Source: Sedimentisphaerales bacterium
GTDB lineage: Bacteria > Planctomycetota > Phycisphaerae > Sedimentisphaerales > SM23-30
Reading direction: 5' to 3'
DNA length: 64,000 nt
Assembly (NCBI GenBank): GCA_016928435.1
Contig: JAFGKT010000060.1
Coordinates: 20,870 to 84,869, forward strand
In this document: positions 24,542-48,446 of the stretch, piece after piece
Layout of the letters: each line of letters starts with the position of its first letter
How positions within the stretch are numbered: position 1 is the stretch's first letter
The notes under the pieces: model-generated
Told to the model about the DNA's origin: nothing
Seen by the model: the letters and a program-made list of their open reading frames with translations, nothing else
The model's database searches: none
Program-made: the position numbers and the translations under genes

Positions 24542-27019
24542 TTAGTGCCCGAATGTGAGGGTGTAAACGGTTTGTGGTTTCGTGGCAAAACCAACCGTGT
24601 TATCCGCATCCAAAGTGAGCTGTCGAGATTCATCATTCTCTGTGAGCGTGAAGGTCTTCTGGCCGGTCATTATCTTGAGCTTACAGTCTTCGCCGCGCAG
24701 CGAGAGAATCTTCAGTTTCGTGATCTTCTCGCCATCCCAATGGATATCAACGGTATGGCCGGTTCTCGTCAGCAGACCGCTCACGTACCCGGTCGGCCAC
24801 TCTGCGGGAAGTGCCGGGAGTATCCGGATAAGGTCCTGGTGGTCCTGCAGCAGCATCTGGGTTACAGCGGACATTAGGCCGAAAGACGCCTCGATCTGAA
24901 AAACCCGCCGATCGCCGAACCACGGCAAGCCGCTCCCCGGTCGCCAGTCGCACAGGCAAAGCAGAAGGTTTCCTATGGAATGATTGATGATCAGCTCGTT
25001 GATCTTGGCTAATGATTTCTCGCCTTGATACAGACGGGCAAAAATGTAAGCATCGCAGGTAAGATCGAGCGTGCAACTTCCGACGCCTTGGTGGCTCAGA
25101 CGCAGTTCGATTGCTTTTGCCACACCTTCAGCATATGCCGCCGTTTCTTCGACCGAAATCCTTGTACCCGGGCAGATACCCACAAGGTGCGATCGATGCC
25201 GGTGCCCCGGGTCTAGCGTAGCATAATCCTGTTCGAGCCATTCCAGAAGTCGCCCCTCAGAGTTGATCGTGGGCAGGGGAATTTTATCGAGCATTTCAGG
25301 CCAAATCTTACGGTCGGCATCGTCAAGATTCAGTATGTCATGTGCTTCAATGGTGTTCTCCAACAGTTCGCGTATGAGTTCTAAGTCAAAGGCAGAAGGG
25401 GCTGACAGTGCCGATGGAATCACACGGCCTTGCGGGAAATTCTCCGGCGAATGGCTCGGGGCCGGCACAAGCCTGCCTTGTGAATCCTCGACCAGAAAGT
25501 GCTGATAGAATCTGCTTATCTCGCGAAGTACCGGATAGATTCTGTCTCTCAGCAGGTCCGTGTCGCGGCAGTATTGCCAGAACTGGTACAGGCTCTGCGC
25601 GAGCCAGGCATTACAGCCCGTCCCAAGCATCGCAAGTTGACAGTAATTGCCGATATTTTCTACATCGCATACGCCCGAATAGCACGCGCCAGGAAGGCCG
25701 TAGATATCAGCCGCGACTATTTCGGCCTGAGGTAGTAGCGAATAAGCCCAATCGATAAGCGGTCGGCCTAACTCAGCGAGATTGACCATGCCCAGACCCC
25801 AATAGCACATCTGCAGGTTAAGGTCCAAATGATAATCGCAGTCCCAGGCCGGCCGGGGGTCTTCATTCCAGATTCCCTGCAGGTTCATAGGCGCTTTTAA
25901 CGGCATCTCAGGCCCAGCCGGGCGACCAGCCGCAATGGCCAGATAACGCGCCAAGTCAAAGGCGCCCTCGACAAGTTTGGGATCATCGACGGACTTCTGC
26001 TCATAGCAATCGGCTATCCGTCGCGGATGCGGTACGGCAGCATGTGAATCCCCAGCCCCGCCAATCTGCAGTTCAACACGGTTATAGAGCGACTGATGGT
26101 CCTCGATATGCTGTTGCTTCAGGGTTTCATAGTCAACTGATGATAGCTTGTCCAGATGACCACGGCAGTAATCCGCCAGGTCATCGTCCGTCTCGCGATC
26201 TGTCGCCATTTTAACCAACAGCGTCACACTGTCCGCCGAATCTACACACGTTGAAATCCCGGCAGGTACTTCAGGATGGACACAATCGCGAAAGCCAAAG
26301 GCAAAGCCGTCAAGAAATTTTGGCGGTTCAGGTGCTGCCGGCGGCATATAGTCAGTAATGCCCGATGTTAGCCGCCCGCCGGTTTGTATAACGCGAACAA
26401 CCGCTGCGAATTTCACTCCTTCTTCAAACTTCCCGGTAAGGGTCAGTTCGTCCAATGATGATTCAGCCGTCACGCTGCATTCACGATCCGGCATGCGGTA
26501 CAGCGAAAACTCACCACTCACCGCGGCGACCTCACTTGCACTTAATCGGATGACGATAACGTTGTGAGGAAATGAAGCGAAATATTCACGTTTGAAATCA
26601 ATGTCACCAACATGGTAGTCTGTCGTTACCACCGCCTCGGAGAGATCGAGCCTGCGACGGCAACTGTCAACCGGCTTGTCTGAACGTAAGTCCGGATAGA
26701 TGCCGATATCCGCCAGCGGAACAAACGGATTGACGTATAAACCAAAACCCGATCGCTGAATTTCCGGTGCCACAAGCGCCGATGCCTCATCCCATTTCTG
26801 CTCAAGGCACAACTGTTGAAACCGCTTGAATTTGGCGGCTAAATTGCGTTTGGGATATTTCCAGTAGCGTCGCCATAGGCGGTCGTGATTCAAAGCCACG
26901 CGATCTTTCAGCGGGTCACCGCTAATCATCGCAGCGAGTCGGCCGTTGCCAATAGGGTAACCTTCCGCGTAAATGTCAGCGGGTGCGTCGGAAAAGATTT
27001 GATGAGAGTGCTGATTCAT
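24542..27019 (-). CDS. glycoside hydrolase family 95-like (alpha-L-fucosidase type)
   Basis: ~825 aa. N-terminal 'YPIGNGRLAAMISG' is typical of GH95. ATG at 27019 has a GAGG 8 nt upstream. The alternative TTG at 27046 would overlap the upstream stop. Confidence 0.75.
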   Translation of the reverse strand: MNQHSHQIFSDAPADIYAEGYPIGNGRLAAMISGDPLKDRVALNHDRLWRRYWKYPKRNLAAKFKRFQQLCLEQKWDEASALVAPEIQRSGFGLYVNPFVPLADIGIYPDLRSDKPVDSCRRRLDLSEAVVTTDYHVGDIDFKREYFASFPHNVIVIRLSASEVAAVSGEFSLYRMPDRECSVTAESSLDELTLTGKFEEGVKFAAVVRVIQTGGRLTSGITDYMPPAAPEPPKFLDGFAFGFRDCVHPEVPAGISTCVDSADSVTLLVKMATDRETDDDLADYCRGHLDKLSSVDYETLKQQHIEDHQSLYNRVELQIGGAGDSHAAVPHPRRIADCYEQKSVDDPKLVEGAFDLARYLAIAAGRPAGPEMPLKAPMNLQGIWNEDPRPAWDCDYHLDLNLQMCYWGLGMVNLAELGRPLIDWAYSLLPQAEIVAADIYGLPGACYSGVCDVENIGNYCQLAMLGTGCNAWLAQSLYQFWQYCRDTDLLRDRIYPVLREISRFYQHFLVEDSQGRLVPAPSHSPENFPQGRVIPSALSAPSAFDLELIRELLENTIEAHDILNLDDADRKIWPEMLDKIPLPTINSEGRLLEWLEQDYATLDPGHRHRSHLVGICPGTRISVEETAAYAEGVAKAIELRLSHQGVGSCTLDLTCDAYIFARLYQGEKSLAKINELIINHSIGNLLLCLCDWRPGSGLPWFGDRRVFQIEASFGLMSAVTQMLLQDHQDLIRILPALPAEWPTGYVSGLLTRTGHTVDIHWDGEKITKLKILSLRGEDCKLKIMTGQKTFTLTENDESRQLTLDADNTVGFATKPQTVYTLTFGH

Positions 27020-27042
27020 TGCGTTTGCCTCAAATACCGTTA

Positions 27043-29088
27043 TCAAATTTCAGCCACTAGATATATTTGCCACGTATCCAGTGTAGGAAGTTTATACTGC
27101 TTATAAGGCCCGGCGGATTGATTGGCCGTTATCCTCGTCTGGTTGCCGTCGATATCCGTGAATGTAATCTCTGTTCTCTCCGACAGCAGATTCAAAATTA
27201 CATTCTCCGCGGGATCGAGATAACAGTTTACCAGTGCCGTCGCCTGGGAGCCGTCCGCAAGTATTCGGTGCCAAAGATTGATTCTATGATAGGAGCTGAT
27301 ATACGCCTCAAGCGTGTCGCGGGAGAGCCAGCGGAAGATAGACTTCATCTGCGACGTCATACTGAGACTCTGAAGCTTCGACCACGGGAAATACCCGTTC
27401 ACGCAAACTCGGCCTTTGAGTTTGTTCTCGAATACGCCGGTTGTGCATGGAGCGACAGTGCAGTAGGTGTAGTCGATCAGCTTAGCAATCGACTCAGCAC
27501 CATCCTGGTTCGACTCAAGAGCATAAGCTGGCGTGTTCCAGAACGATTGTCGTCCGTCGCGGAATCGCCCTGCGAATTGACCATTGATCGGATGTTCAAG
27601 AAGTTGCTGAAGTGAATCGGCGTTGTGTTCCTCGGCAACGGTAAAACCTGTTAATTCGCCGTAACCCATCTCGTTTAGATTACGCAGGGCCTCAGCGTCC
27701 ATATAGACTCCCGATGATAGAATCTGACGTATGGTCTGGTCATCGAGAACAAAAACGCTGTCACCATTCAGGACCGTTACAGACGAATCCTCAAATCGGT
27801 AGGCAGGCGGCAGGCCGATGTGGAAAAGCTCTTCAGCATGACCGACGCCTGGTATCATTGAAGGATTTTGCAGCCAACCGGTCTTTCCAAGGTCCTTGGC
27901 AACAAAACTGTCCTGATTCCAGCCGGTGTATATCCCTGTGGGTCTGACGCGGCCAAAGGTCGATGCCAACCGGTCCAGAAAAGGCCGTATTTCCGCGAGA
28001 CGATCAACCAGTGAGGCGTACTCGTTGAGGGGTTCGTCATATTGAGAAAGAACGTTGTAAGCTGTGCCGGTGCACCCAGCGGCAATGTACATAGCGGATT
28101 CGAGCGAGGTGTAACGCATGCTCTTTGCGAGCCGTTCATAGCTGAAACTCTCAAGTTCCGACTGGATCGAAGTAACCCAATCCGGAAGCAGTGCTGCTTC
28201 CATACCAAGCTGATGTGCTTTCTCCACCGCTGCGTCAAGACGAATTTCTTCGTAGTTGCCTCCGCCCGGCCGCCACCTAACCGTGGCCTTATTTTTGCCC
28301 GCTAGAGCTTCAGCCCAATGGGTCATCGGGTAGCCTTCGTAAAACCTCGAACCGTCCATGAAACCGAGCGGCATATCAGGATTGATGCTGTGTACAACAT
28401 TTTCTATAAAGCTGAGAAATTCAGCAGTCGACTGACGATTGTGTTCCAGCCACTGCTTGCGTATTTGCAATGCCGCCTTTTTCTCTGGGTTTTCAAAAAC
28501 CTTTTGCAGTTCTTCGCGGGTGTAATTGGTTCCGGTTTCACTGGCGAAACGGTTCAGACAGTTCTGACAGAAACAGCTAAAAAGCACCGGCGCATGCCAG
28601 GCCAATCGAACATCGTCATCAACCCAAATATAATCAGGTTCAGCCTCGGTTAGCCAGGTATAGACCGGCTCCACGTAATCTCTGCGATAGTTCTGGTCCG
28701 CCATGCAAAATACACCAGGGCAAGTTCGGCCTTGAATGTCGGTCGCGTTCGTATAGGCACCGGAAAATGAATTCTCAATGTTTTCAGTGTGATGACCGGT
28801 AGTGCTGAGAATATTAATCCCCGAACTAAAACCAAGTTCACGAACCTGACGCATTCGCTTCTTAAGCAGTTCACTTCGCTCGCGGACTTCATCCAGTGGA
28901 AGCGGACTGTGCGTTTCGCTGGTAAAAAAAGTAATTTCGTCGGTGGCGGTTCGGCGCTCAGCGAAAAATTTCAGAAGCTGTTGGAAACGCGTATCCGAAA
29001 ACCATTGCCGAACACCAACTCGAAAACTGATATCGGCTTTCCATCCATTTAAGCTTGATGCTGATCCCATAGTTAAGCTTTCTTTCAT
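27043..29088 (-). CDS. hypothetical protein, distant GH42-like TIM-barrel glycosidase candidate
   Basis: 681 aa, no signal peptide. Cys pattern C-x44-C-x-C-x2-C ('FCMADQ...SCFCQNCLNRF') resembles the GH42 zinc cluster. Otherwise unrecognised. Confidence 0.45.
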   Translation of the reverse strand: MKESLTMGSASSLNGWKADISFRVGVRQWFSDTRFQQLLKFFAERRTATDEITFFTSETHSPLPLDEVRERSELLKKRMRQVRELGFSSGINILSTTGHHTENIENSFSGAYTNATDIQGRTCPGVFCMADQNYRRDYVEPVYTWLTEAEPDYIWVDDDVRLAWHAPVLFSCFCQNCLNRFASETGTNYTREELQKVFENPEKKAALQIRKQWLEHNRQSTAEFLSFIENVVHSINPDMPLGFMDGSRFYEGYPMTHWAEALAGKNKATVRWRPGGGNYEEIRLDAAVEKAHQLGMEAALLPDWVTSIQSELESFSYERLAKSMRYTSLESAMYIAAGCTGTAYNVLSQYDEPLNEYASLVDRLAEIRPFLDRLASTFGRVRPTGIYTGWNQDSFVAKDLGKTGWLQNPSMIPGVGHAEELFHIGLPPAYRFEDSSVTVLNGDSVFVLDDQTIRQILSSGVYMDAEALRNLNEMGYGELTGFTVAEEHNADSLQQLLEHPINGQFAGRFRDGRQSFWNTPAYALESNQDGAESIAKLIDYTYCTVAPCTTGVFENKLKGRVCVNGYFPWSKLQSLSMTSQMKSIFRWLSRDTLEAYISSYHRINLWHRILADGSQATALVNCYLDPAENVILNLLSERTEITFTDIDGNQTRITANQSAGPYKQYKLPTLDTWQIYLVAEI

Positions 29089-29587: not shown

Positions 29588-32335
29588 TTATTCATCAAAC
29601 GTGTATGCACCACGTTGGTAACCAGTCAGCGACAGCGTAATCTGGTCGTTAACCGTGTCCACGCTGATCGCTGGGCTATCCCACAATGCTGTGTTAGCTG
29701 AGATATCCAAAGGCCAGCTCAGCGTCACGCTTTGGCTGCTGCTCTCGGAGTTTACCACAACCAGAAGATGTTCCGGCGAGGCCGTCCGAGTAAACACCGC
29801 CGCGTACACGCCCGAACTCGGCGAAAGCACCGAAACCGTCACCGTATCATCCGAACCGATGATAAAGCTTTCGATGTCAGCAAACTCATCCGCCAACTCT
29901 TTCAGTGTCGTCCATTGCGGCTCTTGATATGTACCATTCAGCTTTTTGATGGTTTGGTACTCTGGTTCAAAATATTCGAGCGCGTGCCAGACAATCCCAT
30001 TGGCACCTGCCGCTAAGGCCACATACATTTCGCCCCGCAACTGTGCACTGGTTGGCCATGAATACTCATCCGCTTCATAAAACGCCTGTAGCAAGACCAA
30101 TACCGAACCATCATAGGTAATTTCTTCCACGGCGTCAATATCATCGGCTATCTTTGCCAGGGAAGAAGTCGAATCGCTGATGCAAAACGGCTCTATTGTC
30201 GACATATCGCCTATTTCCACGTATCCTTCGAAGGATGCCGGGTTTCTCATCACCACAAAGTTAGGTCGGTCCGAATCCAAATTCGACGCCACCCCCGAAC
30301 GAACCCTGAAGAAGTAATTGCTCACAGGGGTTGTCCAATAGCTCGGTTGTTGACCCATGTCGCGAATAATCAGTCCTGCGTTGACCGTGTCACCATTGAT
30401 CCGGGCCGGCAACATCGACGTGTCCCAGGGCATCTGATACGTAGTCCGCAGCCCAAAGCTCCAAGCCGAAAAATCCAAAATGTCAGTCGGATTCATCGTG
30501 AAGTTGAAACCATTTGTTGATACAGTGCTGAGCGAACCGTAAGTCACCTTATAGAACCCAAACGGGAAGAACGGACTGCCGTCAATCTCCAGGATGCTGT
30601 CATCATTAACCGTTACCGTAATCGGACTGGTGTTGGAACCGGCCGGCTCGAACGTCGCTACTTGCTCAGCAACCGTCGGCCCTTCCTCGAACACCGGCGT
30701 ATAACCTGCGCCCTCACACCAGGCCAACAAATTCTCAAACATGTACTTGTCCAAAGCGTAACCTTTGAAGTATGTTGTCACGATAATCCGCCCGTCGCCC
30801 ATCGTATCGGTCCAGATCGTCGTATTGTCATTACGGTTCGTCGCCAGCACCGTGCCGCCGCTAACCGTTATACCGCCGTTGGCAAAATCCGGTGCAGCCG
30901 GTTCCGGTATCCGTGCGGTATAATAAGCTACCACTTCCGGTCCGTCCGGCAGACTGTGCAAACTCATCAAGCACGGATCGGTCCAATCCGGCAGACCCGA
31001 CAAGCGGTCATTAACCGTCAAATCCCACGACGCGTTAACGCTCGTCAACCAATCCACCGATGCGTAATTCGAACGCACGCCTTCCATTATCACCAATCCA
31101 CCCTCGCTGATAAAATCTGCCAACTCATCCCCAAGGTCCGACCAATTAACCAGCTCCGCATTTGGATCAGCTTCGTACAGAGCCGTGAACAACACCAAGT
31201 CATACTGACCCAAACTATCAGCCCAGTCGGCCATGTTCTTGCTCGCCAGCTTGGTTACTTCATAACCTAAATACTGCAAATTATTATCCCACATCGCACC
31301 CGGCTCATAATCCGCATATTCCCCCGTAACGATGTATTCGCTGCCGATCACCGCGGCCTTCTTCACATAAGTACCACAATCAGCGTCCGTCGGATCGGCA
31401 CAACGCAGCCAATCATTCGCCAATATCGCAAAGTCCGGCAGATTCACAACATCATCGGGGGCAATGTCACTCCGCATATCGCTGCCGGTGTCCAACCAGT
31501 CCGAACCCATCGTATACAAATCTACTTCGTTGACGTAACAATCTTCTGACAAATCCCCCGCCAGGTTCAGCCCCAACACTGCCACCGTCTCACAGTCTTC
31601 CAACGTCTGGAATCTCGGCTCATCACCAATATAAATGCTGTCTATGAACCAATCGCCGTCTGTGTTATAAGGCGTACCATAAAAACTTCTGTGCCCCGAC
31701 GAAAAAACGATCGTCCCCAGACCGTTGTAGTGATGTATACTCTCAGACGAAGCGGTACCCGCATAGTTGCCGTTCACATAAACATCAAACCTGCCGGAAA
31801 AATAGAAACCGCCCGACTGGTGGTAAAACGCGATCGTATGCCATTGATGGTTTGTCCATGGCCCCATGTCCGCATCAACATCATTGTCACGAACCATAAT
31901 CCGCTTGGTTTCGTTGTTCAGCCACATGCTTATCCCAGTCATATCGCCAGGACCGCCTCGTGTCGTACCAATCCAGCAGCTATAGTTTGGATCATCCGAA
32001 TCCGGCAGATTCGGTTTAAACGCAAACGCGAACCATTGCGCCCGCGTAACTTCACCCAAGTCCAACCAGTTCGTGTGGTACCCTGTCAAATACAACGATT
32101 GATCGCTCAAGAAACCAGCCGTGTCAACCACATCCCCACTCCCATCAGTGCTGCCGGGTAGAAACCCAGCCGACCATGCCGGCGTACCTTGCCCTGCAAG
32201 CCAACAAGGATCCACCGTAAAAGACAACCCTTGTTCGCCTTGCTCAAAATCGCAGCTATAAACCGTCTCGCCCAACACCCAACTGCTGCAAAGCAAGCTC
32301 AACGCCACTACCATGAGTAATCTAAGTTTCATCAT
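29588..32335 (-). CDS. secreted multidomain protein: LamG-like + dockerin-like + GATase1-like + TIM-barrel-like module
   Basis: Signal peptide 'MMKLRLLMVVALSLLCSSWVLG'. Concanavalin/LamG-like N-terminal region. Asp-rich 'NEVDLYTMGSDWL...DDVVNLPDFAILANDWL'. The C-terminal half resembles a glycosidase barrel. Function unassigned. Confidence 0.55.
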   Translation of the reverse strand: MMKLRLLMVVALSLLCSSWVLGETVYSCDFEQGEQGLSFTVDPCWLAGQGTPAWSAGFLPGSTDGSGDVVDTAGFLSDQSLYLTGYHTNWLDLGEVTRAQWFAFAFKPNLPDSDDPNYSCWIGTTRGGPGDMTGISMWLNNETKRIMVRDNDVDADMGPWTNHQWHTIAFYHQSGGFYFSGRFDVYVNGNYAGTASSESIHHYNGLGTIVFSSGHRSFYGTPYNTDGDWFIDSIYIGDEPRFQTLEDCETVAVLGLNLAGDLSEDCYVNEVDLYTMGSDWLDTGSDMRSDIAPDDVVNLPDFAILANDWLRCADPTDADCGTYVKKAAVIGSEYIVTGEYADYEPGAMWDNNLQYLGYEVTKLASKNMADWADSLGQYDLVLFTALYEADPNAELVNWSDLGDELADFISEGGLVIMEGVRSNYASVDWLTSVNASWDLTVNDRLSGLPDWTDPCLMSLHSLPDGPEVVAYYTARIPEPAAPDFANGGITVSGGTVLATNRNDNTTIWTDTMGDGRIIVTTYFKGYALDKYMFENLLAWCEGAGYTPVFEEGPTVAEQVATFEPAGSNTSPITVTVNDDSILEIDGSPFFPFGFYKVTYGSLSTVSTNGFNFTMNPTDILDFSAWSFGLRTTYQMPWDTSMLPARINGDTVNAGLIIRDMGQQPSYWTTPVSNYFFRVRSGVASNLDSDRPNFVVMRNPASFEGYVEIGDMSTIEPFCISDSTSSLAKIADDIDAVEEITYDGSVLVLLQAFYEADEYSWPTSAQLRGEMYVALAAGANGIVWHALEYFEPEYQTIKKLNGTYQEPQWTTLKELADEFADIESFIIGSDDTVTVSVLSPSSGVYAAVFTRTASPEHLLVVVNSESSSQSVTLSWPLDISANTALWDSPAISVDTVNDQITLSLTGYQRGAYTFDE

Positions 32336-42696: not shown

Positions 42697-43386
42697 ATGA
42701 TAAATGCAACAATAATGCGAACGCCGATTAGAGACCAGGTAATTATTTATATCAAGCGGTTGATAATCGAACAGTCGCTCAAGCCCGGCGACAGCTTGCC
42801 GACCGAAGTGGAGTTGGCGGAGCAGTTGGGGGTCAGTCGATCCAGTGTACGCGAGGCGACAAAGACGCTCAGCTTCTTGGGTATCGTGCAATCCGCGCCG
42901 CGGAGAGGACTTACGGTGGGGGATGTGGATATGGGGCAGATAATGGAGTATCTAGGATTCCATTTTGCCTTGAGTGATTATCCCAAACAGCGTCTGCTGA
43001 AGTCGCGTTTCATTGTAGAGTCGGGAGTGCTGCCGGAAACCATGGCCCGCATGGCCGAAGACCCCACCATCTATGAACGCCTTATTGACATAATCGAGAA
43101 AGCAGAGAAAGAATCGGATATTGACAGAGTAATCGCATTGGATACGGAGTTTCATCAAACGCTGCTGAGAGAAAGTGGTATTGATCCACTGGTGGCCTTT
43201 GGGGATCTGCTGGCCACGTTTTTCAGTAGATTTCGAGAGGAGTTTATTTTTCACCGGTCGCATTGGAAAGAGGGAATGAAGAATCATCGAAAGTTGGTGC
43301 AGGCTTTGGCTGAGGGGAAGTTGCAGGAGGCGAGGGAGCTTCTGGCTGAACACATGGCTTATTATGGGGTGGAATTAAAGGGATAG
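42697..43386 (+). CDS. GntR-family (FadR subfamily) transcriptional regulator
   Basis: Winged HTH 'LPTEVELAEQLGVSRSSVREATKTLSFLGIV' plus an all-helical FCD-like C-terminal domain. Confidence 0.88.
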   Translation: MINATIMRTPIRDQVIIYIKRLIIEQSLKPGDSLPTEVELAEQLGVSRSSVREATKTLSFLGIVQSAPRRGLTVGDVDMGQIMEYLGFHFALSDYPKQRLLKSRFIVESGVLPETMARMAEDPTIYERLIDIIEKAEKESDIDRVIALDTEFHQTLLRESGIDPLVAFGDLLATFFSRFREEFIFHRSHWKEGMKNHRKLVQALAEGKLQEARELLAEHMAYYGVELKG

Positions 43387-43425: not shown

Positions 43426-44229
43426 ATGAGTTCAGTCGCAAACAAACCGGTTCGTTTCGACTTATCGGGTAAGGTGGCGCTGGTGACCGCGGCGGCAGGA
43501 GGTTTTGGTTCGGCGATTACGACCGGACTGGCTGAACATGGCGCTGCGGTTGTGGCAACGGATATTGTAAAAGATGCCGTAGTTGAGATGGCTGACAAAA
43601 TCACCGCGGAAGGTGGACAAGCTGCCGGGATGATCTGTGATGTGACTGATGAGACGCAAGTTACAGAGGTGGTAAAAGCAACGCTGGACCGATTTGGCCG
43701 ACTGGATATTCTCGTGAATATCGCTGGGGTAGGGGTACTCAAGCCGATTCTGGAAATGAGTCGGCAGGAGTACGATCAAACCATGGATACTTGCCTGCGG
43801 GGGGCGTTTATTTGTTCCCAGATCGTCGGGCGAGCAATGCGAACCCAGGGCCAAGGGGGCAGCGTGATCCATATAAGCAGTATAGCTGGGGCGCGAGCAT
43901 TGGGGCGGGGCACCGGAATATACGCCGCGGCAAAGGCGGGCCTTAACGCCATGGTGCGGGAGTTGGCGGTGGAATGGGCCGGACACGGTATTCGGGTCAA
44001 CGCGATTGCGCCGTGTCAGTTCTTAACGCCGCCATTGAAACGAATGTTGGAAGATGAGCGTTTTGGGGAAAAGAATTCGCTCTCAGCGAAAATGTTGGCG
44101 CGGATTCCGATTGGTCGCTTTGGCTTGCCGGAAGATTTAGTAGGCCCCTGTGTGCTATTGGCTTCGGATGCGGCAGCGATGATGACAGGACAAGTAGTTT
44201 ACGTGGACGGCGGATACTTAGCACAGTAA
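43426..44229 (+). CDS. SDR-family oxidoreductase
   Basis: 'ALVTAAAGGFGSA' and catalytic 'YAAAK'; 267 aa. Confidence 0.88.
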   Translation: MSSVANKPVRFDLSGKVALVTAAAGGFGSAITTGLAEHGAAVVATDIVKDAVVEMADKITAEGGQAAGMICDVTDETQVTEVVKATLDRFGRLDILVNIAGVGVLKPILEMSRQEYDQTMDTCLRGAFICSQIVGRAMRTQGQGGSVIHISSIAGARALGRGTGIYAAAKAGLNAMVRELAVEWAGHGIRVNAIAPCQFLTPPLKRMLEDERFGEKNSLSAKMLARIPIGRFGLPEDLVGPCVLLASDAAAMMTGQVVYVDGGYLAQ

Positions 44230-44234
44230 GAATA

Positions 44235-46619
44235 ATGAAAAAGCAGACAGAGAACAACATGGGATTGAGTAAAACGCAGTTGTTATCGCTCTATGAGCGA
44301 ATGTTGCTGTTGCGGCGTTTTGAGTTGACGGTGCAAAAACATTACCGAGCGGGCGTGGTGCCGGGATTCATCCATCTCTATGTGGGAGAAGAAGCCACTG
44401 CCGTTGGGGTATGTGCGCAATTGGACCAAAGCGATTGGATCACCAGTACCCACCGTGGACACGGACACGCCCTGGCCAAAGGACTCCCGCCCAAGACGGT
44501 GCTGGCGGAATTGTGCGGCAGACAAGATGGTTGCTGTGGGGGACGCGGTGGAACCATGCACCTTTATGCGCCCGCGGTAGGATTGTTTGGTACCAATGGA
44601 ATCGTGGCCGGTGGTATGCCCCTGGCTGCGGGCCTGGGATTAAGCGCCAAAGTACGCGATAGTGGTCAAGTAGCGGTGTGTTTTTTTGGGGATGGTGCCG
44701 TTAATCATGGTGCGTTTCACGAATCCATAAACCTCGCTGCCGTGCAGGATTTGCCCGTAGTTTTTGTATGCGAGAACAATCTATATGCGACTTGCACCGC
44801 TTTAGCGGATTCGACCAAGAATGCGGATGTGGCCGGCAAAGCGGCAGCGTATGGAATACCGGGCGTGGCCGTGGATGGCAATGATGTCTTGGCGGTCCGG
44901 CAAGCCGCGGCGGAAGCCGTTGAGCGAGCCCGACAGGGCCAAGGACCAACACTGATTGAGTCGCGAACTTACCGAGTAGTGGGTCATCATGAGGGCGATG
45001 TGTTGACCGGAACCTATCGTACCGAAGAAGAATTGGAGCAATGGAAAAAACGCTGCCCGATCATGAATTACCAGCAGCATTTGCTCAAGACCGGCACTGC
45101 CGACAACGCGGATTTAGAAGAGATTGCCCAGCGAGTCGAGAATATCATAGAAGAGGCCGTGCAGTTTGCCCTGGCTTCCCCTCAGCCCGATCCTGCCACT
45201 GCGACCAAGCATGTCTGGGCTGAGCCCATCAATCCGCCCGAAGCCTTGGCGACGTCGTCAACCGAGACAGTGGAGCAAGGCTGGATGGAAGCGGTACGCG
45301 ATGGCATCGCCGAAGAAATGCGCCGCGATCCGCACATCATTTATTTAGGCGAAGGAATCGGTGAGCGGGGCGGTACCTTTGGCCATACAAAGGATTTGTG
45401 GCAGGAGTTTGGCGCTGGCCGGGTGATAGACACACCGATCTGCGAACTCGGTTTTACCGGAGCAGCGATTTCAGCGTCAGCCTCAGGATGCCGCGCCGTA
45501 GCCGATCTGATGATAAGTGATCTGCTCTTCGAAGCCGGCAGCCAGATTGTGGATCAGGCCGCCAAACTGCGTTATATGAGTAACGGTCAGTTGTCGGTGC
45601 CGATGATAATTCGATCAGGAGCCGGGTTTGTAAAAAATACCGGCCCCCATCATAGTGGTATGTTCCACCCCGTGTGGGCCCATGTGCCCGGCCTGATCGT
45701 GGCGGTTCCATCAAACCCAGCCGATGCGAAAGGATTGTTCAAGACAGCTCTACGCTGTGGCGATCCGGTGATCTACCATGAGCATAAGTCGTTGTTGTCA
45801 ACTAAAGGACAGGTCCCCGTAGGGGAGCATTTTGTGCCTTTTGGAAAGGCTAAGATCGTACGCCCCGGAGCGGACATTACCATAGTATCGTGCGGATTGA
45901 GTCTGCATCATTGCTTGGCCGCGGCAAAACAGTTGGACCAGCAAGGCATCGACTGTGAAGTGATTGACCTGCGCACGCTGGTACCTCTGGACCGAAATAC
46001 GATAATGACCAGCTTGGCGAAAACCAATCATTTGTTGGTTGTGGATGAGGGATTTGCCATGTGCGGAGTCGGAGCGGAAATCGCCGCGGCGGTAATGGAA
46101 GAAGGCTTCGATTATCTCGATGCCCCGGTGGCACGACTGCATACCGATACTGTTACTCCGCCTTTCAGTCCCAACTTAGAAGCTGCCATCGTTTTGAACA
46201 GTGAAAAAATAAAAACCGCCGTGCGAGAAGTCTTGGCAGGTATAGCACGAGCGCCGCGCTCTGCCCGAGGAGCATCCAGCTCAGCATCGAACAGCACCGC
46301 CGAAGCGGAGATAAAATCCCAGGGATCCGATAAAGGCCCGAAAAGTGCCAATCCAGCCACGCCTAAAGTGACCAGTCAAGCCGAAGGCGAGCCGTTCTTA
46401 ATGCCTAATATGGATCTGACGGTAACTGAAGCCACGATTGTACGCTGGGTGAAAAAGGTCGGCGATAAGGTCGCTGCGGACGAACCGGTGTTGGAAGTAG
46501 AGACGGACAAAGCAACCGTCGATGTAGAGGCGCCGATGGCGGGAACATTGGTGGAAATACTTGCCCAAGAGGGCGACGTTGTACCATTGGGAGGGCGCAT
46601 TGGTACCATACGACGTTAA
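44235..46619 (+). CDS. 2-oxoacid/acetoin dehydrogenase E1 alpha-beta fusion with C-terminal lipoyl domain
   Basis: N-terminal third is E1 alpha (ThDP motif 'GDGAVNHG...ENNLYA'). The middle is E1 beta ('DTPICELGFTGAA'). A Ser/Ala/Pro-rich linker follows, then a 78-aa lipoyl domain with 'EVETDKATVDVEAP' (Lys codon at 46509-46511). Confidence 0.85.
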   Translation: MKKQTENNMGLSKTQLLSLYERMLLLRRFELTVQKHYRAGVVPGFIHLYVGEEATAVGVCAQLDQSDWITSTHRGHGHALAKGLPPKTVLAELCGRQDGCCGGRGGTMHLYAPAVGLFGTNGIVAGGMPLAAGLGLSAKVRDSGQVAVCFFGDGAVNHGAFHESINLAAVQDLPVVFVCENNLYATCTALADSTKNADVAGKAAAYGIPGVAVDGNDVLAVRQAAAEAVERARQGQGPTLIESRTYRVVGHHEGDVLTGTYRTEEELEQWKKRCPIMNYQQHLLKTGTADNADLEEIAQRVENIIEEAVQFALASPQPDPATATKHVWAEPINPPEALATSSTETVEQGWMEAVRDGIAEEMRRDPHIIYLGEGIGERGGTFGHTKDLWQEFGAGRVIDTPICELGFTGAAISASASGCRAVADLMISDLLFEAGSQIVDQAAKLRYMSNGQLSVPMIIRSGAGFVKNTGPHHSGMFHPVWAHVPGLIVAVPSNPADAKGLFKTALRCGDPVIYHEHKSLLSTKGQVPVGEHFVPFGKAKIVRPGADITIVSCGLSLHHCLAAAKQLDQQGIDCEVIDLRTLVPLDRNTIMTSLAKTNHLLVVDEGFAMCGVGAEIAAAVMEEGFDYLDAPVARLHTDTVTPPFSPNLEAAIVLNSEKIKTAVREVLAGIARAPRSARGASSSASNSTAEAEIKSQGSDKGPKSANPATPKVTSQAEGEPFLMPNMDLTVTEATIVRWVKKVGDKVAADEPVLEVETDKATVDVEAPMAGTLVEILAQEGDVVPLGGRIGTIRR

Positions 46620-46658: not shown

Positions 46659-47633
46659 ATGAATAAAGCATTGGTAGTTGACACTCTGCCTTTATTTGAG
46701 CGGGAAAAACGCGATATCTTCGCCGGACAGTTGGAACTGAAGATGGCCGAGAGCAAAGACCCCCAATATCTAGCGGAAGCGGTCGCCGACTGTGATGCGA
46801 TATTGGTCGCGTTAAGCAAGATCCCAGCCAATGTCATCGAGGCAGGCAAAAAGCTGCGCGTTATTGCCCGATATGGTATTGGTACGGATAATATCGATAT
46901 TGCCCAAGCTACCGCCCAAGGCATAGTCGTGACATATTGCCCCGAGTATCATCTGCCCACAGCACCGGAGCATGTTCTTGCTTTGATGTTCGCGTTGGCG
47001 CGGAAGATCTGCTTGGGCGATCTTTCGGTACGACAGGGAAACTGGGACCATACAGTCGCGATGGGTGTGGATATCGAAGGCAAAACATTGGGCATTTTAG
47101 GATTGGGTCGCATTGGGACTAAACTAGCGCAGAAAGCCGCTGCGTTGGGGATGAATGTCATTGGTTACGATCCTCTTGTCAAAGCGGAACAATTGAATGG
47201 ATTAGACATTGATGTTGTAGATTTCGATACAGTAGTCAAATCCGCGGACTTTCTCTCGATCTGCATGCCTTTGACCGACCAAACTCAAGGCTTGATCAAT
47301 GCTTCGGTATTCGCCCGGATGAAGGACAGTGCGTTTTTGATTAATAATGCCCGTGGTCCAATCGTCGATGAGAATGACTTATATGATGCGTTGAAGGGCA
47401 ATGTAATAGCCGGAGCTGCTTTGGATGTAATGACGCAGGAGCCGCCCGGTCCCGGCCATAAATTGTACGAGTTGGATAATGTGATTATCACGCCTCATTG
47501 CACTGGCAGTACGGTTGAGTCTATGCAGCGGGTGGAGATGACCGCCGCGCAGAGTGCGGTCGATGTACTGGCGGGCAAAAAGCCCAAGTACATACGCAAT
47601 CCGGAAGTGTTGGATAAATTAGATTTACAGTAA
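46659..47633 (+). CDS. D-isomer-specific 2-hydroxyacid dehydrogenase family protein
   Basis: 'GILGLGRIGTKLAQKA' NAD motif and the catalytic region 'NNARGPIVDE...TPH'. Confidence 0.88.
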   Translation: MNKALVVDTLPLFEREKRDIFAGQLELKMAESKDPQYLAEAVADCDAILVALSKIPANVIEAGKKLRVIARYGIGTDNIDIAQATAQGIVVTYCPEYHLPTAPEHVLALMFALARKICLGDLSVRQGNWDHTVAMGVDIEGKTLGILGLGRIGTKLAQKAAALGMNVIGYDPLVKAEQLNGLDIDVVDFDTVVKSADFLSICMPLTDQTQGLINASVFARMKDSAFLINNARGPIVDENDLYDALKGNVIAGAALDVMTQEPPGPGHKLYELDNVIITPHCTGSTVESMQRVEMTAAQSAVDVLAGKKPKYIRNPEVLDKLDLQ

Positions 47634-47651: not shown

Positions 47652-48446
47652 ATGAAGTATTTGCGTTTTAAGGACAACAATGGCCAGACCCGACAAGGCG
47701 AGTTGAAAAGTGATGGATCGATCGCTTTGCTCAAAGGCGAGATTATGGGCCAACATGAATTTACAGGAGAGATATGCCGAGCGGATGATATCGCCGAATA
47801 TCTCCCCCCGGTTCCGATTATCAATCTGGTCGCTCTAGGGGCGAATTACACCGAACACATTGAGGAGAGTAAGGTCGAAACGCCGGATCTGCCGTTGGTG
47901 TTCTTAAAAGCGATATCCAGTTTGAATGCTCACGGCAAACCTATAATACTGCCCCGGTCAGCTCCCCAAGAGGTGGACTATGAAGCGGAGCTGGGAGTCA
48001 TTATCGGTAAGCCCGCCAAGAACGTAGCCAAGGAAGATGTCGATAATTACATATTTGGATATACCTGTGTCAACGATGTCAGTGCCCGGGATTGTCAATT
48101 ACGTTATGACAAGCAATGGGCCCGGGGAAAGTCGTTCGATACTTTCTGTCCCGTTGGCCCGGTAGTGCAAACCGAATTTGATCCAACTGATGTAAGAATT
48201 CGGTTGTTCTTGAATGGCCAGTGCCTGCAAGATGATTCCACCAAAAAAATGATATATTCAGTACGCGATATTATTAGTTATCTATCTCATAACATGACAC
48301 TTCCTGCCGGAACGTTGGTATTGACCGGCACACCGTGCGGCGTAGGTTTTGCGCGAGACCCGCAGGTATTTTTACAACCGGGAGACAAGGTCGTGGTGGA
48401 AATTGATGGTATTGGCAAGTTAGAGAATGATGTAACCGCTGAATAA
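47652..48446 (+). CDS. fumarylacetoacetate hydrolase (FAH) family protein
   Basis: 'VDYEAELGVIIGK', 'KSFDTFCPVGP' and 'GTPCGVG' are FAH-fold landmarks. Confidence 0.88.
   Translation: MKYLRFKDNNGQTRQGELKSDGSIALLKGEIMGQHEFTGEICRADDIAEYLPPVPIINLVALGANYTEHIEESKVETPDLPLVFLKAISSLNAHGKPIILPRSAPQEVDYEAELGVIIGKPAKNVAKEDVDNYIFGYTCVNDVSARDCQLRYDKQWARGKSFDTFCPVGPVVQTEFDPTDVRIRLFLNGQCLQDDSTKKMIYSVRDIISYLSHNMTLPAGTLVLTGTPCGVGFARDPQVFLQPGDKVVVEIDGIGKLENDVTAE

Follow-up and report, generated by a model that had tools for sequence, protein, structure and literature searches.

The window analysed here is a stretch of 64,000 nucleotides from a Sedimentisphaerales bacterium of the Planctomycetota (assembly GCA_016928435.1, contig JAFGKT010000060.1, positions 20,870 to 84,869 of the forward strand). 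It contains a gene whose single open reading frame (ORF) joins the alpha and beta parts of a thiamine diphosphate (ThDP)-dependent E1 component to a lipoyl domain (protein P0001; Table 1). In 2-oxoacid and acetoin dehydrogenase complexes, substrate channelling is performed by a lipoyl arm anchored on the E2 acyltransferase; in P0001 the arm belongs to E1 itself and probably works from there. The fusion gene is part of an operon with the order GntR-family regulator, short-chain dehydrogenase (SDR), fusion, D-2-hydroxyacid dehydrogenase and FAH-family protein, with intergenic gaps of 5-39 nt; the SDR stop codon lies 5 nt ahead of the fusion ATG. The ORFs and their Pfam matches reveal no E2 or E3 gene in this operon, in agreement with the original prediction, which had been made from the sequence alone.

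Table 1. Position of the fusion gene, its domains and key residues, and the other operon genes in the window
Feature	Position (nt)	Strand	Residues	Basis
E1alpha-E1beta-lipoyl fusion, P0001	44235-46619	+	794 aa	single ORF, 794 codons
E1 alpha part, E1_dh	44298-45194	+	22-320	Pfam PF00676, 290.9 bits
ThDP motif GDG-X26-NN, alpha part	44688-44780		152-182	
His251, invariant, alpha part	44985-44987		251	30-sequence alignment
E1 beta part	45282-46211	+	350-522 (Transket_pyr), 537-659 (Transketolase_C)	
Glu404 in PICE, invariant, beta part	45444-45446		404	30-sequence alignment
Ala/Ser/Pro/Gly-rich linker, predicted flexible	46236-46391	+	~668-719	composition, pLDDT
Lipoyl domain, Biotin_lipoyl	46395-46607	+	721-791	Pfam PF00364, 64.9 bits
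Lipoyl-lysine K759 (AAA), lipoyl domain	46509-46511		759	
GntR/FCD-family regulator, first operon gene	42697-43386	+		Pfam GntR + FCD
SDR	43426-44229	+		Pfam adh_short_C2, 208 bits
D-isomer-specific 2-hydroxyacid dehydrogenase	46659-47633	+		Pfam 2-Hacid_dh_C, 208 bits
FAH-family hydrolase or decarboxylase, last operon gene	47652-48446	+		Pfam FAA_hydrolase, 236 bits

The reading frame is open throughout and matches four Pfam domains in the order E1_dh (cut-off 22 bits), Transket_pyr (PF02779, 104 bits), Transketolase_C (PF02780, 133 bits) and Biotin_lipoyl, which confirms the triple fusion originally proposed. The two motifs quoted in that proposal are present (GDGAVNHG at residues 152-159 and ENNLY at 180-184), and the lipoyl lysine lies within ETDKA (756-760). 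The columns of G152-D153-G154, E180-N181-N182, His251, Glu404 and Lys759 do not vary in an alignment of 30 sequences; K759 is kept in all 30 homologues and in 24 of 24 proteins of a second comparison, with or without an adjacent E2 core, and the motif surrounding it is likewise unvarying. Glu404 is presumably the cofactor-activating glutamate, by analogy with the 'PISE' motif of human E1beta, and we take His252 to stand where human E1 has the serine beside the active-site histidine (phosphorylation site 1). The chain ends only 3 residues past the lipoyl domain, and Pfam finds in P0001 neither a peripheral subunit-binding domain (PSBD; PF02817) nor an E2 core (PF00198).

The composition of the segment ahead of the lipoyl domain corroborates the Ser/Ala/Pro linker noted earlier. 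With about 50 residues, it is typical in length and composition of homologue linkers, which span 46-75 residues and have sequences unrelated to each other. An AlphaFold model of P0001 (predicted TM-score 0.70) has a confident alpha domain and a lipoyl barrel with a predicted local distance difference test (pLDDT) score of 88-93, while the linker scores 25-33 and residues 674-712 fall below 50; the linker is thus predicted to be a flexible, disordered tether. In most homologues a basic motif, R-P-x-x-P-R-R, directly follows the E1beta fold and precedes the variable linker; at this alignment position P0001 has IARAPRSAR (residues 669-678). This location corresponds, in canonical complexes, to the contact site between the PSBD and the free C-terminus of E1beta.

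The original prediction had itself warned that a frameshift or chimeric join at the linker could have created an artificial fusion. Such an origin can be dismissed as virtually without probability: in a search of a 5.8-billion-protein collection, all 120 best clusters carry PF00364 after the three E1 domains in a single ORF (59-67% identity, 768-888 aa, independent assemblies), the linker resembles those of homologues, and GC content shows no break there. The names given to these 120 clusters are generic ('2-oxoisovalerate dehydrogenase E1 component', 'dehydrogenase'), and the few that name an organism come from metagenome-assembled genomes (MAGs) of Planctomycetota and Verrucomicrobiota. Among GTDB species representatives, the single-ORF architecture occurs in Verrucomicrobiota, Planctomycetota, Acidobacteriota, Bacteroidota (Terrimonas) and Alpha-, Beta- and Gammaproteobacteria, including the cultured Mesorhizobium sp. 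Mes31 and M. yinganensis CN2-181. The arrangement is thus non-canonical, as was proposed, but it is not rare, forming a large multi-phylum clade. The proposal had also allowed that the architecture might prove common and already characterised: it is common, but a full-text literature search found no study of this architecture or clade, or of its link to fucose/rhamnose operons.

Only 3 of 40 relatives of the window's genome carry an orthologue (57-59% identity), and identity to these is no higher than to orthologues from other phyla. Thus, the fusion gene is accessory and probably horizontally mobile. Two apparent variants were set aside. The closest species-representative locus, from a nanopore MAG (L070 10001-13255, 68% identity over the best segment), has a frame running from the E1beta end through lipoyl domain to PSBD and core, with at least two frameshifts elsewhere in the E1 gene and a lipoyl domain end that departs from consensus; it is a probable sequencing error, and no claim of a full E1-E2 fusion is made. 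A match covering 99% of the query in 'one piece' in Azospirillum brasilense Sp7 corresponds to separate acoA, acoB and acoC ORFs.

In a maximum-likelihood tree of the E1 part (38 sequences), the alpha-beta-lipoyl proteins of Planctomycetota, Verrucomicrobiota, Acidobacteriota, Bacteroidota and Proteobacteria all group together as a single clade (100/100 support), showing that the fusion has a single origin. Alpha-beta E1s without a lipoyl domain are frequent relatives, in line with the original prediction, which placed alpha-beta fusions in several phyla. The sister clade (100/100) consists of two such Chloroflexota loci (L032 and L039), in which an SDR gene is followed by the lipoyl-less E1alpha-beta gene and then by a normal E2 with a lipoyl domain, two PSBDs and a core. 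This E2 starts 25 nt past E1 in L032, and the called frames overlap in L039; a D-2-hydroxyacid dehydrogenase gene lies slightly further on in both, and an FAH gene lies upstream in L032.

In 12 of the roughly 33 loci examined within the fusion clade (among them L008, L009, L010, L013, L015, L021, L087, L090, L120 and L134), the fusion gene is immediately followed by one for a lipoyl-less E2 of 284-320 aa, with stop/start overlap in some. The downstream proteins of L087, L090 and L120 match only E3_binding (PSBD) and 2-oxoacid_dh in Pfam. The exception is L018, where a 236-aa core frame lies about 3 kb downstream of the fusion. The catalytic DHRxxDG motif is intact in all eight lipoyl-less cores examined, and all but that of L018 have a PSBD-like N-terminus. 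Fusion and lipoyl-less core occur together in L134, from a genome (G015) of the same family as the window's organism. These cores and the sister clade with its normal E2 suggest that the fusion is an otherwise ordinary three-component system in which the gene boundary has shifted across the lipoyl domain. The core is absent (within 7-10 kb) from about two-thirds of the loci examined, the window included. Loci with and without the core are intermixed in the tree, which means that the core gene was lost or relocated several times. The simplest history is a passage from E1alpha-beta with lipoyl-PSBD-core, via E1alpha-beta-lipoyl with PSBD-core, to E1alpha-beta-lipoyl alone.

Upstream of the fusion, a family of ~660-aa proteins without a Pfam match is encoded in Acidobacteriota and two metagenome contigs (L011 4114-6057, L012 2544-4508, L121 5007-6977 and L122 4900-6885; 50-60% identity between phyla). 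It was considered as an E2 substitute and rejected, being absent from the window's genome.

The genome assembly (3.07 Mb, 80 contigs, 85% complete) contains, as the search for orphan E2 cores and E3 suggested in the original prediction revealed, one E2 and one E3, both outside the operon. The only 2-oxoacid_dh catalytic domain (PF00198) is encoded on contig C69, in an E2 with two lipoyl domains, two PSBDs and a core, just downstream of its own alpha-beta-fused E1. Like the L087 core, this E2 best matches the pyruvate dehydrogenase (PDH) acetyltransferase model TIGR01349 (411 bits against a cut-off of 445 for the C69 protein). The single dihydrolipoamide dehydrogenase (E3) is on contig C76 (541 bits, cut-off 409); LipA and an adjacent LipB-like gene are on C37, and a second BPL/LplA-family gene is on C16. 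A tblastn search of the genome with two lipoyl-less cores and AcoC returned only the C69 E2 and a generic alpha/beta-hydrolase match, and no lipoyl/alpha-beta-hydrolase protein of the AcoC type was found in the genome. The C69 E2 region (C69:32128-36325; L001, L005, L006) resembles the E2s of L032 and L039 in having two PSBDs; these additional places to dock may be of use to the genome's four E1 paralogues.

The main rival to a partnership with the C69 E2 is that the window's fusion is the ordinary split form, whose dedicated PSBD-core gene sits in the roughly 15% of the genome that is unassembled or unbinned. Assembly completeness allows for this, and L134 and many other loci have a dedicated core. 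Elsewhere, however, that core follows the fusion directly, or at 3 kb in L018, whereas in the window the 2-hydroxyacid dehydrogenase gene comes next, at a distance of 40 nt, on a contig that runs many kb further. Moreover, the coreless two-thirds of loci include large or complete assemblies with other E2s in full-length frames. We consider a hidden core unlikely. Eight other fusion genomes without an adjacent core have 2-5 E2 cores elsewhere, nearly all of them in full-length frames; thus, a dedicated armless core is not a general requirement.

A different alternative assigns catalysis to the two lipoyl domains of the C69 E2 itself and leaves the fused domain an auxiliary, docking or regulatory role, such as the N-terminal lipoyl domain of alphaproteobacterial PDH E1beta may also have. 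Alphaproteobacterial E1beta proteins with an extra lipoyl domain do co-exist with fully lipoylated E2s. In relatives of P0001, however, the partner E2 lacks any lipoyl domain, so that the E1-borne arm must be the working one there, and the lipoyl lysine and its surrounding motif are unvarying; an auxiliary role is accordingly very unlikely.

The window's genome encodes further E1s without an E2 gene beside them. In C2:26940-35179 (covered in part by L004), genes for a DeoC/LacD aldolase, an FGGY kinase, a RuBisCO-like protein, an 85-aa stand-alone lipoyl protein, E1alpha, E1beta and a xylose-isomerase-like TIM barrel follow one another, and the contig ends soon after. In the tree, this E1 falls together (100/100) with an Armatimonadota locus in which a lipoyl ORF is separate as well. 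A Thermus thermophilus plasmid likewise encodes E1alpha, E1beta and a stand-alone lipoyl protein near TRAP transporter, FGGY and BtpA/SgcQ genes. The third orphan E1 (C1:7164-14808) is a 718-aa alpha-beta fusion without a lipoyl domain on a very long tree branch; it lies between an ACT-domain malic-enzyme-like gene and genes for an aldehyde dehydrogenase, an SDR, an Amidohydro_2 (lactonase-like) protein and a second SDR.

P0001 was compared with E1s of the PDH and acetoin dehydrogenase types. Among solved structures it best matches human PDH E1beta and E1alpha (about 230 bits for either one), ahead of subunits of branched-chain 2-oxoacid dehydrogenase. It narrowly misses the PDH equivalogs TIGR03182 (368 against 393.85) and NF008854 (386 against 454), and passes only the subfamily model NF006667 (322.9 against 321). 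The alpha part is 45.5-48.1% identical to E1alpha of the acetoin (aco) type at four comparison loci (L103, L104, L115 and L118: an Azospirillum acoA beside an AcoC-type gene, a Thermus plasmid cluster and two Mesorhizobium clusters) and 37.2-37.3% identical to bona fide Mesorhizobium PdhA (L110 and L111). The beta part does not discriminate between the two (39-45% for aco-type, 41% for PDH), and the top annotated plasmid matches are aco-type clusters. In acetoin dehydrogenase systems (AcoA/AcoB, AcoC, AcoL), a heterotetramer-type ThDP E1 loads acetyl onto a lipoyl arm, as is proposed for P0001, and an SDR that produces the carbonyl substrate frequently accompanies this E1; P0001 differs in carrying alpha, beta and lipoyl parts in one chain, in an operon without AcoC or AcoL and in a probable fucose/rhamnose-type sugar-acid context.

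Genes beside the fusion bear on the acyl group. In L134, Pta and AckA are encoded on the strand that bears the fusion-core pair, at a distance of 2-4 kb; in L091, the fusion is followed by genes for an acylating acetaldehyde dehydrogenase and a DmpG aldolase; and in L119, a convergent gene encodes acetyl-CoA synthetase. These neighbours, together with the PDH-acetyltransferase-like cores, point to a C2 (acetyl) product, as far as gene content can indicate it. If the arm does carry acetyl, a housekeeping PDH-type core would be the chemically right acceptor, which would account for the dispensability of a dedicated core.

Two kinds of substrate fit these data. One candidate is pyruvate, which might come from FAH and aldolase steps, or from lactate by way of a racemase and the D-2-hydroxyacid dehydrogenase; the pyruvate-yielding FAH, KDPG, DmpG and DeoC enzymes at these loci, and a LarA-like racemase beside a D-2-hydroxyacid dehydrogenase, agree with it. 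The other is a sugar-derived alpha-hydroxyketone or 2-oxo acid, produced by the SDR or 2-hydroxyacid dehydrogenase, which might be cleaved in the manner of acetoin with release of an aldehyde; the translational coupling of SDR and E1, the aldehyde-handling enzymes encoded downstream and the greater similarity to aco-type E1 are in keeping with this.

A self-contained oxidative decarboxylase, one of the options in the original prediction, would release the acyl-dihydrolipoyl group without any E2 core, by hydrolysis or to an acceptor other than coenzyme A (CoA), and would need only E3 in addition. The lack of an E2 core in this operon and at most loci is what one would expect of it, as are the stand-alone lipoyl proteins beside coreless E1alpha and E1beta genes on C2 and the Thermus thermophilus plasmid. 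The clade, however, arose from a system with a dedicated, catalytically intact core, which its members often retain, no thioesterase or alternative acyltransferase candidate is conserved beside the fusion in the loci examined, and the Pta/AckA and acylating acetaldehyde dehydrogenase neighbours indicate acyl-CoA chemistry. Given the lipoyl-less E2 downstream in about a third of the loci, and a genome that has an E2, an E3 and lipoate-attachment genes, this option is not supported, and we regard it as highly improbable.

Across loci, the commonest neighbours of the fusion are one or two SDRs, the SDR being the most frequent of all, and a D-2-hydroxyacid dehydrogenase. The SDR gene has a start/stop overlap with the fusion in L012, and the dehydrogenase gene adjoins the fusion in L016, L017, L023, L026, L090 and L120. 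FAH-family proteins are less common; RhaT-family transporters, MBL-fold lactonase-like proteins and GntR regulators also recur, and GntR genes orthologous to that of the window flank the fusion in L087, L091, L122 and L133. In the window, the best NCBIfam match of the FAH protein is 2,4-didehydro-3-deoxy-L-rhamnonate hydrolase (196 bits, cut-off 500).

A gene at 24542-27046 (minus strand), in the most distant part of the adjacent glycan cluster on that strand, encodes a member of GH95 (the alpha-L-fucosidase family) that has Glyco_hyd_65N_2 and GH95 C-terminal domains. It lends support to a link between the operon and fucose. Pfam gave no match for the two large genes beside it (27043-29088 and 29588-32335). 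Together, the operon neighbours across loci and this GH95 gene make it likely that the operon serves a sugar-acid route for 6-deoxyhexoses of the fucose/rhamnose type. A relative of the same order (L133, G036:C3:33000-48168) has a long co-directional operon around the fusion, without an E2 core: GntR, SDR, cupin, SDR, 2-hydroxyacid dehydrogenase, KDPG aldolase and PfkB kinase genes precede the fusion, and glyoxalase/VOC, PfkB kinase, DeoC aldolase, SDR, LarA-like racemase and MBL-fold protein genes follow it.

On balance, P0001 is probably an acetoin/pyruvate-type E1 with a cis-tethered, working lipoyl arm. An E2 core acting in trans, in this genome probably its only PDH-type E2, would discharge the arm, and the only E3 would re-oxidise it. 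The chain combines alpha and beta with the lipoyl domain of the former E2 partner, and two such chains would assemble into the usual alpha2-beta2-like E1 dimer. ThDP at the alpha/beta active site would cleave or decarboxylate a carbonyl compound supplied by the neighbouring sugar-acid enzymes, and the acyl group, probably acetyl, would be reductively transferred to the chain's own, presumably lipoylated, K759 on its tether of about 50 residues. The loaded arm would then be unloaded to CoA by an E2 core in trans, the C69 E2 being the likeliest acceptor, before the C76 E3 re-oxidises the arm.

Several points weigh against this scheme. At 85% completeness, a dedicated PSBD-core gene could sit in unassembled DNA. 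The free C-terminal carboxylate of Geobacillus stearothermophilus E1beta contributes to PSBD binding; in P0001 the chain continues from that terminus into the linker, which may hinder canonical docking on an E2 core. The C69 E2, for its part, has an alpha-beta E1 of its own just upstream, and its identity to the lipoyl-less cores of relatives reaches only about 30%. Finally, pyruvate-type and acetoin-type substrates both fit the data.

A bolder and rather doubtful extension dispenses with a dedicated complex altogether. The fusion might be a free-standing plug-in, much like a glycine-cleavage P protein to which the H protein is joined. The neighbouring SDR and 2-hydroxyacid dehydrogenase would supply a hydroxyketone of sugar origin or a 2-oxo sugar acid, from which the fusion would cut an acetyl or other C2 unit and hand it to the housekeeping PDH core. 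In glycine cleavage, a decarboxylase loads a lipoyl carrier outside any large E2 core and the carrier visits separate enzymes. The comparison is an analogy only: P protein uses pyridoxal phosphate, not ThDP, H protein is a separate chain, and neither is homologous to the E1 part.

A lipoyl domain on E1 has precedents. The alpha2-beta2 E1s of PDH complexes (human, G. stearothermophilus, alphaproteobacterial PdhA/PdhB) share with P0001 the ThDP motif and the catalytic histidine and glutamate, but P0001 scores below both equivalog cut-offs, and its lipoyl domain is C-terminal, not N-terminal. Heterotetramer-type E1s have separate alpha and beta chains, whereas P0001 is a single ORF, a known variation. 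The PDH E1beta model NF008854 includes an N-terminal lipoyl domain, and the lipoyl segment of P0001 aligns to its profile positions 6-65; relative to the alphaproteobacterial E1beta proteins, however, the lipoyl domain of P0001 is permuted to the C-terminal side of beta, and alpha is fused. A Zymomonas E1beta with a lipoyl domain was reportedly described in 1998. In Mesorhizobium sp. Mes31 and M. yinganensis (L110 and L111), the housekeeping PdhB has a lipoyl domain upstream of the E1beta domains, and these genomes hold both the N-terminal and the C-terminal kinds of lipoyl-bearing E1.

A precedent for the beta-then-lipoyl order is QncL, which combines E1beta-type domains, a lipoyl domain and then an acyltransferase domain in one chain, and which with QncN forms a ThDP/lipoyl cassette acting on ketose phosphates rather than classical 2-oxoacids (PMC6335953). 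The C2-unit cassettes QncN/QncL/QncM (and SclQ1-4), which belong to natural-product pathways and are compared here by architecture rather than sequence, differ from P0001 in that QncL has its own acyltransferase domain, works with a separate alpha subunit and delivers the unit to an acyl carrier protein (ACP). P0001 lacks an acyltransferase domain, and no ACP-family Pfam match occurs in the two genes on each side of it or in the next three genes beyond the operon. E2 acyltransferases resemble P0001 in having a lipoyl domain with a conserved lysine and differ in having the PSBD and core that P0001 lacks.

Sharing of one E2 by two E1s is described for the hybrid complex of Corynebacterium glutamicum (PMC7568260). 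The PDH-2-oxoglutarate dehydrogenase hybrid of Corynebacterium and Mycobacterium, in which OdhA uses the lipoyl domains of AceF, is comparable in that one E2 serves more than one E1 and arm and core reside on different proteins; it is also a mirror image, the E1 OdhA having a core and no arm, and P0001 an arm and no core. New relative to all these systems are the triple fusion, the complementary armless E2, its repeated loss and the sugar-operon setting.

This clade thus moves the arm to E1, leaves an armless E2 core and repeatedly discards that core, which suggests that a foreign housekeeping core and E3, both working in trans, can service an arm carried by E1. If so, one gene would suffice to add a new oxidative C-C cleavage to a sugar operon, a possibility that bears on the assembly and evolution of these complexes. 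The fusion also marks an uncharacterised step in a widespread operon comprising an SDR, a 2-hydroxyacid dehydrogenase and E1, with FAH, RhaT or lactonase genes in some loci. This operon probably functions in fucose/rhamnose-type degradation by polysaccharide-degrading Planctomycetota, Verrucomicrobiota and Acidobacteriota. Were the fusion a free-standing plug-in, the step would amount to a hitherto undescribed C-C cleavage, dependent on ThDP and lipoyl, in the catabolism of 6-deoxyhexoses (fucose/rhamnose), which horizontal transfer would have carried into at least five phyla.

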